33,281 nucleotides of DNA from SRR20825006_316; one strand, 5' to 3'; positions 1,872-29,149 are shown, counted from the first letter of the stretch. The notes: generated by a model from the letters alone, not told the origin. Program-made: numbers and translations.

Positions 1872-3914
1872 CTAAATTTCAAAGCTTGGCTCTGGCGTGC
1901 GCCACCCGGCACCATACCGCGCTTCTGAGACAGCCTCCGGGTCAAATGGTGCTTTAAACCGCTCACCTTTGAACTCAATCTCGCTTAGCGGCAGGAAAAT
2001 ATCCGCCCGCTCTGGTACCACTACAAGGCGGGTATGCGGCCAGTAAATGGTGTCATCCTTAAGCCCAAGCACGAAGATATCAATGGTAATGTCCCCCCGC
2101 TTGCAGTGAATAAGCGGTGAGCGACGCGTTGGCGCGGAGCATGGCACCCCATTCTCATTCAGAAACACCACGATACGGTCGCGCTCATCCACCAGGTCCT
2201 CCGGGTCTTCGCAGTCAATAACGATGGCCGTATCGAGGTCATCATCATGCGGGATAAAGTCTTTTTCCCGGATCGCACCCAGAAGCGTGCCATATAGCAG
2301 AAACGGCTCAAATCCAGCCCTTTCCATCGCGTCCCGGTAATCCACAAGCAGCTTCATGATCTTGGCTTCGTTCCGCTCGCGCAGCGGCACGTTCATACCG
2401 TGTTTGGTAAACAGCATGCGGCGGGAATGGTTGATCTGTTCCGCCACGTCTTCTGACCCTTTAAGAAGGGCTGAAAGCGCAGGGCGGCTGTATTTACCAA
2501 CCATCTTGGCGGTCGACCGTGCCGCAAACTTACACCGGTAAACCGTGTACAGCTTGCCAATCATACGACCGTAGCCTCTCGTCAAGTGGCCCCCAACAAG
2601 CATATCAATCATCTGCCGCGCGCCCATCACATGGCGGAACGTCGCGCCGTGGTCATAAACCGTGGTCCAGTTTTGCTTATCAGTGCTGAGCGCCACCTGC
2701 AAAAACATGGTGCCGCCGCCCAAAAGCTTGCTGCGATTCCAGAATTGCACACGGGAAACTGTGGTCTCTTCTTCAAGTTCGATCGTCTTGGTGGAAACTG
2801 GCCCCTGCAAATTGAGGCCATATGACTCGGTATCAACAAATGCCGCGCGATCATGATGAAACTTCATGACCTTGCCGCCAAATGCTTGCGCCAGCGTTTC
2901 GCCGTCATCGCCGGTGTAAACCCTGAGGCCACCAAGGCCTTTGCAATTCACCCCGACAGTACGCACACGAATATAGCGAGCGTGGGCGGGTGCGATACGC
3001 ACATCCTGCGAAGTCTCTGGTGTGCCGCCAAAATCTCGTACGCTGGAGATCGCGATATCAAACGCATCAAGGAGCTTGCGGGCGATCTCTATCCGTTCGT
3101 CTTTAATCCGCTCAATCAAACGCTTGTCCCGGCCTGGCATCAGGCGCTTGGCAAGCCTCCACTTGAACGCGCGCCACTTGCCTTTCGGCGGATTTGCGCG
3201 GCGGAAATGCTTCACCTTGCCCACATCCTGAAGCAGACAGCTCAGCCGCCCGAGCGCAGAGGACACCAGTTCTTCATACTCGCCTTGTCGCTCAGGAGCA
3301 CAAAGCACGTGAAGCGCCTCAACATCATCCAGCGCCCGCTGCAACCTACCGTCAATGAACGCCCGCAGATGTGAATGAGGGTGATAGAGGTCATGTTGCT
3401 CACCGTTCGCATCTTCAGCAAAAATACGTAGCGAGTTTGTACGTGTGATGTTTCGGTCCATGCGATGGTAGAAATAGAGATGGCTAACCTTCACCCTGCT
3501 TGGGAACTCTGCCCGCCACCAGGGTTGGGCCTCCCGCTTACTGTGAATATTGGGGCCAAACACCCCGCTATTAACAGCAGCGTAGGGGTCCGCGCGCTTT
3601 TCATGGCAAGTGCTTTGTGTACAAACCGCATGCTGGGAAACATCCTGCAAACGGGGTTCTCCCTCCACCTTCCCAATAAAGCGGGCAGCGGCGAAATTCA
3701 GGATCTCGGGGTTCTCGCGACACAACTGAAACGTGAATGCCTGGAAGTCACCTTCCACTGGCAGGGAAATCGGCGTAAGTGCCGAACCAAGCGAGACAAT
3801 TTCGCCCGGAAATACCTCTTTCAGCTTCGGGCGCTCACGGCGCATAGAGAAACGAGTGCACACCTCGCGTGTATGGCTGAGGGTGTCAGAATAGTGTTTA
3901 CCCGGCTTATTCAT
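1872..3914 (-). CDS. LicD-family phosphotransferase with N-terminal F-type lectin / F5-8 type C (discoidin) domains
   Basis: C-terminal LYGTLLGAIREKDFIPHDDDLD...IDIF...YG(A)GW(R)TP LicD signature. N-terminal HSKREAQPWW...HRMDRNITR. Start uncertain (3971, 3914 or 3845). Confidence 0.85.
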   Translation of the reverse strand: MNKPGKHYSDTLSHTREVCTRFSMRRERPKLKEVFPGEIVSLGSALTPISLPVEGDFQAFTFQLCRENPEILNFAAARFIGKVEGEPRLQDVSQHAVCTQSTCHEKRADPYAAVNSGVFGPNIHSKREAQPWWRAEFPSRVKVSHLYFYHRMDRNITRTNSLRIFAEDANGEQHDLYHPHSHLRAFIDGRLQRALDDVEALHVLCAPERQGEYEELVSSALGRLSCLLQDVGKVKHFRRANPPKGKWRAFKWRLAKRLMPGRDKRLIERIKDERIEIARKLLDAFDIAISSVRDFGGTPETSQDVRIAPAHARYIRVRTVGVNCKGLGGLRVYTGDDGETLAQAFGGKVMKFHHDRAAFVDTESYGLNLQGPVSTKTIELEEETTVSRVQFWNRSKLLGGGTMFLQVALSTDKQNWTTVYDHGATFRHVMGARQMIDMLVGGHLTRGYGRMIGKLYTVYRCKFAARSTAKMVGKYSRPALSALLKGSEDVAEQINHSRRMLFTKHGMNVPLRERNEAKIMKLLVDYRDAMERAGFEPFLLYGTLLGAIREKDFIPHDDDLDTAIVIDCEDPEDLVDERDRIVVFLNENGVPCSAPTRRSPLIHCKRGDITIDIFVLGLKDDTIYWPHTRLVVVPERADIFLPLSEIEFKGERFKAPFDPEAVSEARYGAGWRTPEPSFEI

Positions 3915-12227: not shown

Positions 12228-13055
12228 TTACCTGAAGAGGGAAAGGATCGAAGACGGGCTTTGGTTCGCGATGGAAAGCGCCTGCAGGCCAAGCTGCTGT
12301 TTCACCTGCAAGGCTTGCAGGTTTGCCGCCTCTTTGGCGAGGTCTGCGTCCACCAGATTGCCGATGCCAACTTCAATGGTATCCGAGAGTTTGGCGACAA
12401 ATGACTTCTGGATCGCAATGCGCTTCGCCCCCGCACCAAACTGAGACAGCACAGAGTTTACGCTATCAATGGCGGCGGCGATTTGGTCAACCGCCACAGA
12501 CGCCGCCCCCTGGCTATCAATCACTTGTGTGGCGCTGAGGGATACGTTTGAACCGCCAAGCGAAAGATCCTGCGCGGAAATAGCGAGGTTTTTATCCCCG
12601 CTTGGGTCCGTGATCGCACTGATGGAGCGCCCACCCGATTTAACCGCGTTCACGCCGTTAAATTCAGCATTCTCGATGATGGAAGATATCTGGTCCCTGA
12701 GCTGGGCAAAATCCTGGCTGAGCGCGGCACGGCTGGCTGTATCAAGCCCGCTATCTTTTGCGGCCACGGCCTTTTCTTTCATCTGAATAAGGAGGTCAGA
12801 CACCGCTTCGGCCGCCGCGATCGCCACATCAAGGCTGGAGCTTGCCCGCGCGAGGGAACCCTTCACGGCGCTGAGGCCGCTTACATCTGCGCGCAGATTT
12901 TGGGCAATAGCAAAGGTAGCCGCGTCATCTTTCGCGGAGGAGACCTTGAGGCCTGTGTTGATGCGTGTCTGCACCTCGCCAAGCATTTTGTTGGTTTTGT
13001 GCAGGTTCTGAAGCGCAACAAACGCGCCCGCATTAGTGTTTACCGAGTAAGACAT
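12228..13055 (-). CDS. Flagellin (short, Caulobacter-type)
   Basis: N-terminal SVNTNAGA...RINTGLKVSSAKDDAA and C-terminal GNLVDADLAKEAANLQALQVKQQLG...ANQSPSSILSLFR. Confidence 0.96.
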   Translation of the reverse strand: MSYSVNTNAGAFVALQNLHKTNKMLGEVQTRINTGLKVSSAKDDAATFAIAQNLRADVSGLSAVKGSLARASSSLDVAIAAAEAVSDLLIQMKEKAVAAKDSGLDTASRAALSQDFAQLRDQISSIIENAEFNGVNAVKSGGRSISAITDPSGDKNLAISAQDLSLGGSNVSLSATQVIDSQGAASVAVDQIAAAIDSVNSVLSQFGAGAKRIAIQKSFVAKLSDTIEVGIGNLVDADLAKEAANLQALQVKQQLGLQALSIANQSPSSILSLFR

Positions 13056-13151
13056 TCTGCCTTCTTTCAGCCCTATAGGCCCATACCCAATTCAGAGTAT
13101 ACCACACTCGCTCATCACCAGTAGCGTGAAAGTGCGCGGCCTATCTGGCCG

Positions 13152-13907
13152 TCACGCGCTTTCCACCTTATTCTTAAGTGGGTCAGGTCGTCGTTCCATC
13201 GGCTGGATATCGCAATCCAGATCAATAGCAACGTTTTCTGACGCAACAAGCGCTATCATCAACTGGTGCTCAGGTACAAAATGAAAGTAAATCATGGCAT
13301 TTTCACGGCCCTTTGGCGTGGGTGCCGCAAGTTTTGGTGGCCGGGCAGTCAAATCCACCTGAATATTGCGCAGGTAAGGCATCAACTTGCCGTCTTCCAT
13401 CTTCACGAATGCCTCACGGATAGACCAAAGCGTGAAAAACAGCATGCGGCCAATCTCATTCGACATGTTGGATAGAAGCACCCAGTCCTCTGGCGGGAAA
13501 CGGCGTTCCGCCACCCGACGCCAATCTACCACCGGGTCAAGCTGCTGGATATCAATGCCGATAGGCGTGGTCTCAGAGACCACAACGGCAGAAATCCCCT
13601 CCTCTGCCGCCCCGGTATGGGAGACAGAGAAGAAAGGCGGTTCATCATCTGAGAAACCCTCAATGCGAACCCTGCCCGCGCCTTCCTGGGTGAGCGGCAC
13701 GGCGCCCGGCAGCAAGCCCATATATTCACCAAGGGATGCCCTGAGCATACGGCGGGCGGTGACAAACGCAGGCCGCGCACCTTCATGCATCCTGGCGAGG
13801 CGTTCGTGCTCAGTTGCAGACAGGTCTTCCTGGCCTGAAAGCGCCGGGTCTGCTGCCCTCACCTTCAAGGTCACCGTCTCGCGCAACTTGTCTTGCTCGT
13901 CAGCCAT
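13152..13907 (-). CDS. Sfp-type 4'-phosphopantetheinyl transferase
   Basis: FSVSHT, IGIDIQ and WSIREAFVK (variant of GxDxE / WxxKEAxxK). Confidence 0.8.
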   Translation of the reverse strand: MADEQDKLRETVTLKVRAADPALSGQEDLSATEHERLARMHEGARPAFVTARRMLRASLGEYMGLLPGAVPLTQEGAGRVRIEGFSDDEPPFFSVSHTGAAEEGISAVVVSETTPIGIDIQQLDPVVDWRRVAERRFPPEDWVLLSNMSNEIGRMLFFTLWSIREAFVKMEDGKLMPYLRNIQVDLTARPPKLAAPTPKGRENAMIYFHFVPEHQLMIALVASENVAIDLDCDIQPMERRPDPLKNKVESA

Positions 13908-18747: not shown

Positions 18748-19287
18748 TCAGGCAACACGCATGTCTCGGACGTCAGGCACGCCATATCCAACATCAACAA
18801 AATAGCTAAAATGCATCTCACCGTTCACGATCGTGGTGGTATCGCCCAGCAGGCCATACATATGGCGGGCTGCGGCAAAATCAGTGATCGAGACAAGCTG
18901 TCGCCCGCGCTTGGATACAACAGGCAGATAAAGTGTTTCATGCTTCAACTTGTTGCCAGACGACTTCTCAAGCGTGCGGCTAACATGGATGCCGCAGGGC
19001 TGGTTAAGCGCCGCCAAAGCTTCCTCACACGACAGGTTCGCACCAAACTTGAGGCTCATGGTGCCGCTTGACGCGCCCACCACATTACGGCCCCATATAT
19101 GGTCAATTGCCGTACCCGACTGCACAACAACAAGTTCACCATGCTCACCGGCCCTCAGCGCCATAAAGCGCGAGGTAAGCGCACCCAGCCGCGACAACGT
19201 GAAATCAGCGCGGTCAGGCAAGCTGTCCGATGTATTAAATTCTTCCCAGATCGCGGCCAGCCGCGATGCGCCTCCCCCAAGGCTCAT
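18748..19287 (-). CDS. Stand-alone PAS_5-type domain protein (paralog 1, most divergent)
   Basis: W..LPDRADF..., SGTAID..WG, QPCG, ETLYLP and C-terminal FVDVGYGVP. Start placed at ATG 19287. Confidence 0.7.
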   Translation of the reverse strand: MSLGGGASRLAAIWEEFNTSDSLPDRADFTLSRLGALTSRFMALRAGEHGELVVVQSGTAIDHIWGRNVVGASSGTMSLKFGANLSCEEALAALNQPCGIHVSRTLEKSSGNKLKHETLYLPVVSKRGRQLVSITDFAAARHMYGLLGDTTTIVNGEMHFSYFVDVGYGVPDVRDMRVA

Positions 19288-19518
19288 TTCCAGTTTCAAA
19301 CGCAAACTCCATACACATACCAAACCAACTACCGGACCCCCGTACGGCGCTGCCAGCACACGGGCAGATTCGCTGATTTCCGCGCATATTATATTTCTGG
19401 ACTTCAGAGTCTAGGGACGGTTAAAATTTTATCTAATTTTGAGAATTTGTTTACCCTAATCACCACATCTGCTGCCAACATGAAAAATTAACGCGACACA
19501 CCGCCACATGCCCAATTC

Positions 19519-25306: not shown

Positions 25307-25894
25307 CTACCGGTTATGGTTGAAATGCTCGAGCGTGCAGGCAGGTAGGCCGAAGCCTAGGTCAACAAACGCGGCTTCCCGTATGGTGGGCGGTATTCTC
25401 TCCTCACGGTAAGGGCGGGCGCTGTTTTTGCGTTTCTCACTCGCTTCCATGCTTTCTGCCGTGTTGGCCTCGATGTAGCCAACACCCAAGATATAACGCA
25501 CCTCGCCCGAGGCATCCGCAAGCGGCGCACCAAGCGTGTGAAGGTCATATATGCGGCCGCCATCGCCGGTTACCCGGCGCTTCACCCGTGCGGCACAAGG
25601 GTGCTGGCGATAGGCCTGCAGAAAAGCTTCAAAGTGGTCCCATTCGTCCTCATGCAGCCGGTCAAACAGGTTTTCGCCCGATACACGAAAGCTGGGCCGG
25701 GCTTCGATATCTGTGCCCAGCAGGCGGACCTCAAGCTTATACCTGGCTATATGCTCAGCCACAAAAAGGTTAGGCACCAACGCGGGTGCGAGTGTGGGGC
25801 TGAAACATGCCTTCGCTGGCACGTTGCCAACACTTTTGGGCAACGTCTTCCACAGCGCGATAAAATCTTGGAACATACGGCCCCCCGCGTCCAT
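25307..25894 (-). CDS. Stand-alone PAS_5-type domain protein (paralog 2)
   Basis: W..VPAKACFSP, VRLLGTDIE, HPCAA, LGAPLAD..G.VRYILG, FVDLGFGLP. Confidence 0.8.
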   Translation of the reverse strand: MDAGGRMFQDFIALWKTLPKSVGNVPAKACFSPTLAPALVPNLFVAEHIARYKLEVRLLGTDIEARPSFRVSGENLFDRLHEDEWDHFEAFLQAYRQHPCAARVKRRVTGDGGRIYDLHTLGAPLADASGEVRYILGVGYIEANTAESMEASEKRKNSARPYREERIPPTIREAAFVDLGFGLPACTLEHFNHNR

Positions 25895-26094
25895 ATAGCT
25901 CTCCGCCCGACCCCCATTTGCCGGTTGGCGCGAAGGGAGCTTAGCAGATCACCCGTAGAAGAAGAAGCACAACCATGCGCAGCCTTAAATGGCAGTTTTT
26001 AGCGGTTTTCTCGCGGGAGCTGTAGAAAAATGGGCTTTTAACCGCTTGTGGTTTTATGTATAGTTCGCCCCTAGGGGCAAAACGGGAGCATGTT

Positions 26095-26214
26095 ATGAGG
26101 AAGAACTGCGCGAATGCGCAGCCCCGGCACGGTGCACTGTGCCTGTTGGGGACGTTCGCATTCTTTGGCATCATCGGCGCTGCTTTTTACTGGAGCATTA
26201 CCGCAACGATGTAA
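26095..26214 (+). CDS. Small (39 aa) single-pass membrane protein
   Basis: Manual translation MRKNCANAQPRHGALCLLGTFAFFGIIGAAFYWSITATM*. GGGAG SD at 26084-26088 and TATAGT -10-like element upstream. Below the ORF-track cutoff. Confidence 0.6.
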   Translation: MRKNCANAQPRHGALCLLGTFAFFGIIGAAFYWSITATM

Positions 26215-26254
26215 CGGATTGAGATCGGGGCAGATCAAAATCCAGATATGAATT

Positions 26255-26508
26255 CAGGGTCATATACCCTGCCACTCTTGGGCTACGGCCCTTGAGGAAA
26301 CCGCGACCGGCAAGCCAGGCACCCCCTTTGTGCCCGTGTGAACCGGAAGCAACCAAGAGAGGGAACCTGGGGCAAACAACCCAACAGGGGTTATCTCGCC
26401 GCTGAGACAGGTTCCACCCACGAGCCACCGGCACACATGCCAAAAGGCTCAGCAGGGATGTCGGGGCTGCCATGAAAGTCATGGACGGGGAAGCCCGGCA
26501 CCACCTGC
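26255..26508 (+). ncRNA. Putative large structured RNA of unknown family
   Basis: About 11 nested or adjacent helices in 255 nt, including a C(UACG)G tetraloop and multi-way junctions. A G-U pair favours the + strand. No credible ORF. Confidence 0.5.
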
Positions 26509-26570
26509 GATCCTCAGACCATTGTTCAATTCAATGCACTTCCCATGTTTTTTGAAGAGATGGTCATGTC

Positions 26571-26990
26571 ATGCCGCAATATCGCCAAATCACATCCAGC
26601 ATGTCCCAACTTGGGGTTTTGATCTTCGACTGGATCGCTGCCGGAGCAATCGGGTTCAGCTCGATTTTCATGCTTGACCTTTTCGTACCCTCCCCTCTTG
26701 AAAATGACGTTCCCGATCGGGCGGGTGGTATGATCACTATACTAGCGCTTCACGTCTATTTCGTCTCAACGATGCCTTTTCTCAACGGCCGAACATTGGG
26801 CATGTTACTTTTCAAGAAACGGGTTGTTTGGCGGGAACGTGAAATGCCAATCCTTTTGACGACTGCGCGTGCTTGTATTTATATCATCATCTCATTGGTG
26901 ACAGTATACCCAATATTGCGAAACCTACTCGCTGGCAAAAAAGGCCCCTATGATTCAGCATTTCAGGTCTTTATGGTCGACGAGAACTAA
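26571..26990 (+). CDS. RDD-family membrane protein
   Basis: IFDW, GRTLGMLLFKKRVV, AR and PYD motif pattern with three TM segments. Confidence 0.75.
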   Translation: MPQYRQITSSMSQLGVLIFDWIAAGAIGFSSIFMLDLFVPSPLENDVPDRAGGMITILALHVYFVSTMPFLNGRTLGMLLFKKRVVWREREMPILLTTARACIYIIISLVTVYPILRNLLAGKKGPYDSAFQVFMVDEN

Positions 26991-26991
26991 C

Positions 26992-27375
26992 ATGGAATTT
27001 GAGCCGTTCTACGCAAATCAACGGTCTACTTCTGAACCGTTTCTCGCCGAGAAATTGACAACCATGCCAATTTCAAAACCTTCGATCAAAACACGTGTAA
27101 TTGAGCAGTTCACAAAGCAATTCATAAGATGTGATGCAAAAACCCTACTCAATTTTGTTTGCATATATGTCGAAAACGAACTGTTAGACATACAGGCAGA
27201 CCCAACCCTTCCTTCAGGAGATGTCGTCATCCATGTGCTCAATGAGAGCGTACTTACAGTTGACGTTCGCTTATATTCACCCGGTGAGCCAGGAAGCATC
27301 ATGTATGGCCATTCTATCCGCCGTTTGAGCCAACACGAGTTTCTGATCAACACATACGGATGCCTGCATTTCTGA
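26992..27375 (+). CDS. Hypothetical protein (127 aa)
   Basis: ATG immediately after the RDD stop (TAAC ATG), operon-like, AT-richer. Confidence 0.55.
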   Translation: MEFEPFYANQRSTSEPFLAEKLTTMPISKPSIKTRVIEQFTKQFIRCDAKTLLNFVCIYVENELLDIQADPTLPSGDVVIHVLNESVLTVDVRLYSPGEPGSIMYGHSIRRLSQHEFLINTYGCLHF

Positions 27376-27582
27376 GGTCTCAACATCCTGTCGCGCATTC
27401 TGCACCATATTCGATCATCCAGTTTGCATGCCTGATCCTGCACATGCGGTATTTTGCGCTGGACGAAGCCGTGCGTGCGGGCGCACAATAAGGTTCAGGA
27501 TACCAGTGCAATAAAGCGGCACAAGACCGCCAGCGCCCTCATATATGGCCCTTCACACGACAATGACGACGGACCCAAAACC

Positions 27583-28524
27583 ATGCTTGATGCTGCACGC
27601 CCGGATTTTGAAACCAAAAACCGCCTGACGGAACTGATTAAAACCCATGCGCTTGAGCCGGGCCGTACAGCCTCCCCGCTTGACCGAGTGGATTTTTACC
27701 GCGCGGATGAACCAACCGAGTGCAGGCCGGTTGTGTACCAGCCCAGCATCATCATTGTGGCGCAGGGGTCCAAATGCGGGCTGCTGGGTGAAAACCGCTA
27801 TCAGTATGACGCGTATAATTACCTTGTGCTTTCCGTACCGCTGCCCTTGGTGGCGCAGGTTGAGGAAGCAAGCCCGGAGAACCCTTTCCTTTCCATGTGC
27901 ATATCGGTGGACCCTGTCACCCTTGGTGATCTGCTCATTGATCTGGAGGAAGACAGTGCCCGGTGTGAAGACGGTATTTACGCGGAAAACCCTTCAGGTA
28001 TTGAGCAAGCGATCCACGCCGCGCCGCTTACGGACCATATCGCCAGCGCCGCCGTGCGGCTGATTGAGGCCATGGACCATGAAACCGACCGCAAGGTGCT
28101 CGCGAACCAGATCCTGCGGGAGATTATCTACCGCGTGCTGGTGGGCGAGCGCGGCGCGTGCCTGCGTGCGGCCGCCCGCCGGGGCGGCAAGTTCCATCAG
28201 CTGGCGGAAGTTTTGCGCACCATCCACACCCGCTATAATGAAGCTTTCTCGATCGATGATATGGCGTCTATCGCTGGCATGAGCGCCACGGCCTTTCATG
28301 CCAACTTCAAGGCAGTGACAAGCATGACACCCCTTCAGTATCTGAAGAATATTCGCCTGCACCAGGCGCGCGGCATGATGATACGGGACGGCATGAATGC
28401 CTCCACCGCCGCCTTCCGGGTTGGCTACGCAAGCCCCTTCCAGTTCAGCCGGGAATATAAACGCCTGTTTGGCGCACCACCCAGCCGGGAAGTGCGCGAC
28501 GCAGCGCTTGAATATTCACTGTAA
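27583..28524 (+). CDS. AraC-family transcriptional regulator with AraC_N domain (YqhC-like)
   Basis: YQPSIIIVAQGSK, REIIYRVL, MS..AFH..FK.VT.MTPLQYLK..RL, VGYASPFQFSREYKRLFG.PP. Confidence 0.93.
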   Translation: MLDAARPDFETKNRLTELIKTHALEPGRTASPLDRVDFYRADEPTECRPVVYQPSIIIVAQGSKCGLLGENRYQYDAYNYLVLSVPLPLVAQVEEASPENPFLSMCISVDPVTLGDLLIDLEEDSARCEDGIYAENPSGIEQAIHAAPLTDHIASAAVRLIEAMDHETDRKVLANQILREIIYRVLVGERGACLRAAARRGGKFHQLAEVLRTIHTRYNEAFSIDDMASIAGMSATAFHANFKAVTSMTPLQYLKNIRLHQARGMMIRDGMNASTAAFRVGYASPFQFSREYKRLFGAPPSREVRDAALEYSL

Positions 28525-28567: not shown

Positions 28568-29149
28568 TTAGATATCCGGCTTGATCGTTTTTGCAGGCGG
28601 CAGAGCCGGGCTCTCATCCGGCAAACCAAAGCCCACGTCAATATAGTGATGCGCCGTGATGTTGGAGAAATCGAGCACCGGCGGGTCATAGGCCGTAAGC
28701 ACAAGGTTGTTGCCCACGCCAGCCACCCCGATGATATAGCGCACGCTGCCTTCTTTGTCCGTGAACGGTAAACACCGGGTATTGAGCGAATAGATATCCC
28801 CGCCCGCCAGGTGGATATCACGCCTGAAAAAGGCACCGCACGGCACCTCTGTCATATCGGTAAACACCTGCTTGAAAAAAGGTGCGTCGACCTTGTAGCA
28901 GATTTCCAGATAGTTTTTACCCGTAGCGGCAAAGCCCAGCACCTGCTCAATGGCGGAACCGGCCAGCCTAATATGCAGATCATCCGGCGAGCGTCGCTCA
29001 ATGATGAAAACAAACGGCAAAAGGTCCTTTAACACCGCCGGGCTGAAGGCCGCGCGGGTAGGCACACCACCGGCATCGCTCGCCAGGGTTCGCCAATAAT
29101 TGTGAAAGACCTCAAAGTGGTCCGCTCTCGGCAGGGTAAACTCAACCAT
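28568..29149 (-). CDS. Stand-alone PAS_5-type domain protein (paralog 3)
   Basis: YW..VPTRAAFSP, IRLAGSAIE, VPCG, LPFTD..G.VRYIIG, YIDVGFGLP. Confidence 0.82.
   Translation of the reverse strand: MVEFTLPRADHFEVFHNYWRTLASDAGGVPTRAAFSPAVLKDLLPFVFIIERRSPDDLHIRLAGSAIEQVLGFAATGKNYLEICYKVDAPFFKQVFTDMTEVPCGAFFRRDIHLAGGDIYSLNTRCLPFTDKEGSVRYIIGVAGVGNNLVLTAYDPPVLDFSNITAHHYIDVGFGLPDESPALPPAKTIKPDI

Follow-up and report, generated by a model that had tools for sequence, protein, structure and literature searches.

A structured RNA element downstream of a small membrane-peptide reading frame in Kordiimonas

The stretch of DNA called SRR20825006_316 (33,281 nucleotides (nt), referred to below in its entirety as the window) belongs to a genus whose related genomes carry the name Kordiimonas, and 32 genomes of that genus were examined here. 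This report concerns a segment of 254 nt with 62% G+C at 26255-26508 on the plus strand, hereafter the element, which a preliminary description made from the letters of the window had singled out as a densely folded RNA. A short spacer separates the element from an upstream open reading frame (ORF) for a very small protein, and an AT-richer insertion and then the gene for an AraC-family regulator follow it downstream. As argued below, the element probably forms the structured tail of a single transcription unit that begins in front of the small ORF. The coordinates of all of these features are collected in Table 1.

Table 1. Features of the small-ORF locus and of the element (window coordinates)
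Feature	Position	Strand	Remarks
TATAGT, likely -10 box of the small-ORF promoter	26059-26064	+	ends 8 nt before the tagged 5' end
RNA 5' end, A26073	26073	+	X13 and X16, runs from two studies, each have a contig that begins matching here
Shine-Dalgarno sequence GGGAG	26084-26088	+	6 nt before ATG
Small ORF, 39 amino acids	26095-26214	+	stop included; MRKNCANAQPRHG + 22 hydrophobic residues + TATM
Spacer, 40 nt	26215-26254	+	40/40 identical to G013; holds TTGAGA (26219-24), N17, CCAGAT (26242-47)
5' domain of the element, helices H1-H7	26255-26392	+	26 differing columns over 138 positions against G013
3' domain of the element, helices H8-H10	26393-26508	+	2 of 116 columns differ from G013
Helix CAGGGT/ACCCTG	26255-60 / 26266-71	+	fully paired
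Helix CTCTT/AAGAG	26275-79 / 26355-59	+	fully paired
Hairpin GGGC-UACG-GCCC	26280-91	+	fully paired
Helix CCGG/CCGG	26307-10 / 26343-46	+	fully paired
Helix GGCAC/GTGCC	26318-22 / 26330-34	+	fully paired
Helix GGAACCTG/CAGGTTCC	26362-69 / 26408-15	+	fully paired
Helix AACCC/GGGTT	26378-82 / 26388-92	+	fully paired
Helix TCTC/GAGA	26394-97 / 26404-07	+	fully paired
Helix GAGCC/GGCTC	26422-26 / 26446-50	+	fully paired
Helix GGCA/TGCC	26430-33 / 26438-41	+	fully paired
Helix GCAGG/CCTGC	26452-56 / 26504-08	+	fully paired
Helix TGTCGGG/CCCGGCA	26459-65 / 26494-500	+	fully paired
Helix CCATGA/TCATGG	26470-75 / 26479-84	+	fully paired
AT-richer insertion, about 880 bp, not part of the element	26511-27390	+	absent at the locus in G013, G014 and G019
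RDD-family ORF	26571-26990	+	within the insertion
141-amino-acid ORF without a family	26950-27375	+	within the insertion, overlapping the RDD ORF

The small ORF and the start of its transcript

The peptide encoded by the small ORF has one hydrophobic span and is predicted to be a single-pass membrane peptide; Pfam holds no family for it. Against G013, the genome with the one diverged homolog of the element, 117 of the 120 nucleotides of the ORF are identical, and two of the three changes are synonymous. Six-frame searches recovered the ORF from 21 of the 32 genomes of the genus, with nine invariant columns in the peptide (M1, N7, A8, G13, F23, F24, G28, W33 and S34), while it was not found in any of 300 further genomes sampled from the class (the single match among 301 is the nearest genome itself). 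A GGGAG precedes the ATG in eight of the nine homologous loci shown, the window included, and the ninth, L017, reads GAGAGGG. Gene callers mostly miss this ORF; the gene is unannotated though genus-wide, and the locus adds a missing small gene to the Kordiimonas annotations. In most species the small ORF stands tail-to-tail with a PAS_5 gene.

The likely -10 box is part of a sequence found about 30-36 nt before the ATG across species, as GTATAGT in G013 and in two other species (G014 and G019), and as GTATTGT or GTATGGT in three further species. A strict consensus scan did not list the TATAGT box, and indeed reported no sigma-70-like site anywhere in 25850-27600. The preliminary description had placed a promoter, TTGAGA-N17-CCAGAT, just upstream of the element. 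Its letters are present as described, within the spacer, and the site is likewise missing from the output of the scan.

Contigs of four public sequencing runs were aligned on 25800-27600. Contigs of two of these runs, X13 and X16, carry loose letters directly before 26073 that end in GTACATGGG, and X13 shows 20 such letters. This tag, in the account given of the method, is a template-switch oligo plus GGG and selects reads from transcription start sites (bioRxiv 10.1101/2019.12.11.873505). Since the genome letters before 26073 are CCT and not GGG, the junction is unlike what would result from annealing of the oligo at an internal GGG. The X13 contig spans 26073-26548 unbroken and with no differing letter, covering the ORF and the whole element, so that one population of molecules of complementary DNA (cDNA) type joins the two. 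A structured RNA is thus found on the same molecule as the ORF and downstream of it, the arrangement that defines RNAs derived from a 3' untranslated region (UTR) as well as dual-function RNAs. At 26252-26254, where the two contigs of X16 meet, there is no tag, and no 5' end is shown.

A longer, 52-residue form of the peptide starting at 26056 is not the product, because this position lies upstream of the RNA 5' end; a search for relatives with that form returned only the window's own 39-residue protein. As a separate observation, an X16 contig stops at 26574 and carries 15 loose letters there. The final nine of them are the reverse complement of the template-switch tag; the six letters preceding these nine do not occur at this point of the window. 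The reverse tag could mark the 5' end of an antisense molecule, or else a site where the oligo acted as primer.

Structure and conservation of the element

The 13 helices in Table 1 were proposed in the preliminary description, and recomputation finds every one of them Watson-Crick or GU paired throughout. A long-range pairing of GTGTG (26336-40) with CACAC (26432-36) had been suggested as well; here the letters are in place, and the pseudoknot is rejected, since G013 preserves only one of the five pairs.

Folding of the plus strand of the element gives a minimum free energy (MFE) of -107.1 kcal/mol and a z-score of -2.65, with one of 200 dinucleotide shuffles equally good, which agrees with the prediction that the element would fold better than shuffled sequence. 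Among 130 non-overlapping 254-nt plus-strand windows across the 33 kb (background z of -0.33, standard deviation 1.13), the element ranks second by z and second by MFE, in a grid that was framed on the element and is therefore biased in its favour. Considering this z-score, the -2.32 reached by the minus strand and the rank of two among 130, the structure of the element exceeds chance moderately and is not extreme. For the whole unit, taken as 26073-26560, the z-score is -2.97, and none of 100 shuffles is equally good. The full-length MFE structure pairs the 5' leader with letters past 26508; this pairing was rejected because those letters sit in an insertion specific to the window and differ in G013. 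Within the small ORF, 26118-29 is complementary over 12 nt (11 of 12) to 26459-70, the 5' arm of helix H10b. The same ORF segment is similar to the 3' arm, which makes an alternative pairing conceivable; both segments are unchanged in G013.

The expectation that no known RNA family would be recognized was borne out. Rfam 15 gave no match at gathering score over the whole window, and with permissive filters the region 26000-26700 yielded three chance-level matches (E 2-4, 10-16.5 bits against gathering scores of 40-100), with ribozyme and intron families absent up to E 10. ARAGORN found no tRNA and no tmRNA, and a literature search limited to Kordiimonas plus small RNA found no published description of this RNA. 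The element is an unclassified structured RNA on the plus strand.

All conservation statistics rest on two sequences, the window and G013. Identity between the two is 76% in the PAS gene, 90% in the AraC coding sequence, 87% in the upstream intergenic DNA and 83% in the region upstream of AraC. Against this background the locus shows two blocks of near-identity. The first opens abruptly at the RNA start: G013 differs at 26065, 26071 and 26072, and from 26073 to 26254 only 3 of 182 columns differ (179 identical). The second is the 3' domain of the element, closed by a three-tier hairpin of 57 nt at 26452-26508. Both of its differences fall in the terminal loop of that hairpin (26476 and 26478), divergence resumes at 26510, and the binomial probability of two or fewer differences in 116 at a local rate of 15% is P = 1.5e-6. 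The 83 bases of 26393-26475 are invariant, unpaired linkers among them, which suggests that the linkers make sequence-specific contacts besides taking part in a structure. Between the two blocks, the 5' domain has about 82% identity, the background rate, and nonetheless keeps its helices, with its non-helix differences in loops and linkers. Over the unit as a whole, identity with G013 goes on at 26073 and off at 26509/10.

Of the 24 differences in the element, five fall within the 136 helix positions of its 254 (hypergeometric P = 6.6e-4), a test that is not circular because the earlier reader had only the window from which to define the helices. An alignment artefact accounts for two of the five: G013 reads GGGCAC-CCCTT-GTGCCC, so that its GGCAC/GTGCC helix has a loop two bases shorter and one additional G-C pair. 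The three true changes are A to G opposite U at 26364 and 26365, and C to U opposite G at 26380. These are G-U wobbles on the plus strand and would be A-C mismatches on the minus strand, which argues that the plus strand is the RNA. In a control with 300 random sets of 23 substitutions, the real changes left an MFE of -103.9 against -90.8 +/- 6.5 for the random ones (9 of 300 sets equal it), and on the window's own structure -86.3 against -68.9 +/- 7.2 (3 of 300). The proposal of a structured RNA has thus held up, with helices that are real and conserved in the one available homolog; a pair of sequences does not yet allow strong claims about structure or function.

The element is narrowly distributed. 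BLAST of 26200-26560 against 41 relatives matched two, G013 and, as a single copy at 100%, the nearest genome G001, so that the homolog and copy-number searches called for at the outset yield one diverged homolog and a single copy in the nearest genome. A covariance model built from the window/G013 pair (R1) found the same two among the 32 genomes of the genus. Run on 151 genomes of the order, it matched eight at E<=1, with nothing significant past the two already known; the other six are partial matches of 25-107 nt (11.6-12.4 bits, E 0.15-0.45) and were treated as chance. In seven loci from other species that carry the small ORF, R1 with its filters off matched nothing behind the ORF. Searches of plasmid and phage collections by blastn, and pattern scans of viral contigs and of metagenomes, returned no match to the element. 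Two helix-anchored patterns, run over one genome per species for 185,579 species, hit a single record, titled as a Kordiimonas metagenome-assembled genome; it is counted with G013 as one sequence because its element row and R1 score (333.5) are equal. The stretch or part of it is contained in 19 of 23 sequencing-run rows, where shares below 1 mean partial cover and not variants. Since four aligned runs show zero or one differing letter, the runs add no sequence diversity. Uncovered parts of the stretch in X13, X16 and X19, and the depth figures, are given no evidential weight.

The order small ORF, spacer, AraC-family regulator is common to four species, and only the window's species and G013 have the element in it. 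The other two carry terminator-type hairpins there, at a distance of 50-75 nt from the stop codon: in G019 the spacer of 274 nt contains just a GGGCCCCATGGGGCCC hairpin and its T-rich tail, while G014 has a hairpin of the same kind, then seven head-to-tail copies of a 15-nt unit and a strong intrinsic terminator. The hairpin GGGC-UACG-GCCC of the element looks like the counterpart of these hairpins. Unlike them, it has no T-rich tail in the window or in G013 (TTGAGG and CGGAGG, respectively), it is followed by about 215 nt of further helices, and a cDNA-type contig continues across it. The most parsimonious origin of the domain is in the ancestor shared by the window's species and G013, on or behind the former terminator. 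The seven-copy repeat itself lies downstream of the small ORF in Kordiimonas aestuarii, at 3225-3330 of locus L012 (the same as L015).

The element as part of a small-protein mRNA, and other readings

The best explanation of these results, and one that we hold to be somewhat better than an even bet, is that the element makes up the structured 3' portion of an mRNA for a small protein, a plus-strand unit of about 436 nt from 26073 to 26508. With the same modest confidence we would lay the unit out as a start at A26073, a 22-nt leader with GGGAG, the 39-codon ORF, the 40-nt spacer, about ten helices, and the hairpin 26452-26508 at the end. The original picture of a free-standing, novel large non-coding RNA does not fit well with this evidence, as the element lies within a conserved unit that starts at 26073 and the X13 contig joins it to the ORF.

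How might such a 3' module work? The stacked hairpins, above all 26452-26508, would block 3'-to-5' exonucleases, and a stable 3' end may be defined by processing. Processing is proposed for want of a U-tract terminator behind the hairpins: position 26508 is followed by GATCCTCAGACC, without the U tract of an intrinsic terminator, and no terminator-like site was found on the plus strand in 26215-26600. Perhaps the module is also released as a 3'-UTR-derived regulatory RNA, either by cleavage or through an internal start near 26255, in which case the ultra-conserved single-stranded linkers of 26393-26475 could be the contact surface of the released RNA.

Several observations weigh against the reading of the element as a 3' domain of this mRNA. 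The minus strand has good folding as well (4 of 200 shuffles equal it), and G013 alone reaches a z-score of only -1.88 (7 of 200 shuffles equal it), with a different long-range MFE structure. Five of nine substitutions within the window's own MFE pairs break them, mainly in an MFE helix that competes with AACCC/GGGTT. The covariation that had been looked for is not seen, with compensatory double changes in 0 of 73 consensus pairs, as only two sequences exist. The near-identity of the two blocks could in principle stem from a recent exchange of DNA rather than from selection. The RNA status of the runs is a tool's guess, though one that the tag backs, no run being listed as RNA; each 5' end is one contig per run, and the contigs show neither 3' ends nor strand nor level. 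The cDNA contigs moreover extend 40-66 nt past 26508, to 26548 and 26574, and for this reason the 3' end at the terminal hairpin is deduced from conservation alone. Finally, the domain is absent in the two nearest species that retain the small ORF, and hence the ORF does not need it.

Among published systems, the nearest architecture we found is ccaF1-CcsR1-4 of Rhodobacter sphaeroides, in which, as far as the published account (PMC8034643) bears on it, the 3' UTR of a small-protein mRNA is processed into structured small RNAs (sRNAs). That system, too, is alphaproteobacterial and consists of a very small protein ORF followed by several hundred nucleotides of hairpin-rich 3' UTR; its protein, as described there, is a 71-residue DUF1127 RNA-binding protein, whereas the window encodes a 39-residue membrane peptide without a Pfam family. 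In further contrast, the domain in the window has no Rfam match and occurs in two species only, and processing and action in trans are proposed possibilities for it. CcsR/cuckoo-type RNAs have paired hairpins with a CCUCCUCCC loop motif, located downstream of a DUF1127 gene. This motif is absent from 26073-26560 even with one mismatch allowed, the five one-mismatch hits in the window all lying elsewhere, and with neither the motif nor a DUF1127 domain nor an Rfam match, membership of the element in this sRNA type was rejected.

Dual-function sRNAs that encode a small peptide, such as SgrS/SgrT, RNAIII with delta-hemolysin, and AzuCR/AzuC, offer another comparison, since they too are transcripts of a few hundred nucleotides made up of a small ORF and a conserved structured RNA part. 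For these RNAs, base-pairing targets have been demonstrated, and their 3' ends are formed by intrinsic terminators; the unit in the window has no U-tract terminator, and no sequence or family relation links it to them. Type I toxin mRNAs, hok among them, invite a comparison too: about 400 nt long and strongly folded, with an extended structured 3' part, they encode a small hydrophobic peptide, a combination also seen in the window. Unlike the patchy, multi-copy type I toxin loci, the small ORF is single-copy, syntenic and present across most of the genus; no antisense RNA gene was identified, and the reverse tag at 26574 has to be kept in view here.

The best of the competing explanations is that the element is an sRNA gene of its own, transcribed from the TTGAGA-N17-CCAGAT promoter with a start near 26254-26256, giving a trans-acting RNA of about 255 nt, with read-through from the ORF being incidental. 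sRNAs that arise from internal promoters in 3' UTRs are a known class. The spacer that holds the promoter is identical in G013, and a start 7-8 nt past CCAGAT would fall on the first base of helix H1; the junction of the X16 contigs, and a further run, X19, that covers only 26267-26500, are weak hints at most. Still, there is no template-switch tag or loose end at 26252-26255, unlike at 26073, the X13 contig passes the spot unbroken, contig breaks are expected by chance at a depth of 2-4, and CCAGAT is a poor -10 box in a site that the consensus scan did not list. We therefore regard an independent sRNA as possible yet rather unlikely.

A bolder version of the mRNA reading is that the 436-nt unit is a recent orphan dual-function RNA, the mRNA of a genus-specific membrane micro-protein that gained a 250-nt multi-helix domain with a function of its own on a former terminator hairpin. 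The domain could then regulate in trans, sponge a protein or sense a ligand, with the linkers of 26393-26475 as its active surface. We consider this doubtful, and if it were true, the locus would record a datable birth of a complex structured RNA domain.

Another reading takes the element as functionless filler, a lineage-specific relic of an old insertion or duplication whose hairpins simply reflect GC-rich composition. The spacer between the small ORF and AraC is completely different among the four related species, the element is in only two of the 32 genomes of the genus, the folding z-scores are modest, especially in G013, and there is no covariation in the strict sense. It is difficult, however, to see how filler would keep 114 of 116 positions in 26393-26508 where neighbouring non-coding DNA is 83-87% identical, or why differences would avoid helices that had been defined beforehand. 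Moreover, a block with background divergence splits the conserved blocks, which fits selection better than a single recent DNA exchange. Filler is, in our judgement, improbable.

Hardly a stronger case can be made for a cis-regulatory leader, riboswitch-like or acting by antitermination, that would serve the downstream AraC-family regulator (ancestrally) and the inserted RDD gene (in the window). No terminator separates the element from the next plus-strand genes, the two cDNA-type contigs that run past the element end at 26548 and 26574, the latter just beyond the RDD start codon (26571-26573), and in G013 about 190 nt separate the end of the element from the AraC start. The element matches no riboswitch or leader family, though, and an 880-bp insertion between it and AraC has been tolerated. 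In addition, a region of about 190 nt upstream of AraC is common to the four species, two of which are without the element; in these two it follows a terminator-like hairpin, and AraC therefore probably has a promoter of its own. A leader function has little in its favour on this evidence.

The suggestion that the element is the RNA part of a mobile element or its remnant (a miniature inverted-repeat transposable element, retron, group II intron or transposon-associated guide RNA), or else a self-cleaving ribozyme, draws on its sharp boundaries, its many-helix architecture and the unrelated insertion exactly at its 3' end. The mobile-element idea is largely refuted by the single copy in the nearest complete genome, by the empty searches of plasmids, phages, viral contigs and metagenomes, by the lone congener among 185,579 species genomes, and by the lack of convincing terminal inverted or flanking direct repeats; a check of the neighbouring genes found no match to a reverse transcriptase, transposase, integrase or nuclease family in the 31 window ORFs scanned. 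Ribozyme and intron families likewise give no match up to E 10, and this whole group of explanations is very improbable.

A protein-coding gene or pseudogene, either the 94-residue minus-strand ORF at 26198-26482 or the plus-strand frame at 26338-26475, can be set aside: the minus-strand frame is open in both genomes (94 and 109 residues) and drew three weak hits from a HMMER search of 1.84 billion representatives (best E 6e-8), yet +4 and -1 indels shift the frame between the genomes so that the intervening stretch gives unrelated residues, substitutions almost always alter the encoded residue whichever frame is read, the best hit sums matches to a 9-fold repeat in a 1137-residue protein (14 of 41 identical) over a part not conserved in G013, Pfam has no family for the frames of the element, and the RNA 5' end points to the plus strand.

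Taken as the 3' domain of a small-protein mRNA, the element opens no new RNA class and is a narrowly distributed example of such a domain. What the locus offers is a cleanly bounded structured RNA domain that is found in two species and absent from their nearest relatives, with independent evidence for the 5' end. It may serve as a small model for the origin of long 3' UTR domains, and possibly of 3'-UTR-derived sRNAs, from a terminator region.

The insertion and the neighbouring genes

The drop in GC content that had been noticed after the element is real, from 0.564 in 26001-26500 to 0.466 and 0.468 in the next two 500-nt bins. The AT-richer DNA with its RDD and hypothetical genes is a separate insertion, about 880 bp long, and starts two bases past the last helix of the element. 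By BLAST, homology to G013 breaks off at 26509 and is picked up again at 27403, the blocks being 9 nt apart in G013; the junctions were read by eye. The RDD protein is found in two of the 32 genomes of the genus, namely in the nearest genome and, as a 42% match at a different place, in G005. The sole repeat at the insertion junctions is a short CCTG-type similarity on both sides.

Elsewhere, the window carries genes for capsule synthesis, flagellin, RTX-repeat, PAS_5, response-regulator and regulator proteins. The strongest folding z-score in the window, -4.05 (25 shuffles), belongs to the plus-strand fold of 13047-13300, which spans the gap between the flagellin gene (12228-13055, minus strand) and a phosphopantetheinyl-transferase gene (13152-13907, minus strand). 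This fold may reflect a flagellin leader on the minus strand. Three paralogous single-domain PAS_5 (PF07310) genes lie within 11 kb, at 18748-19359, 25307-25894 and 28568-29149, all on the minus strand, and two of the three flank the small-ORF/AraC locus.

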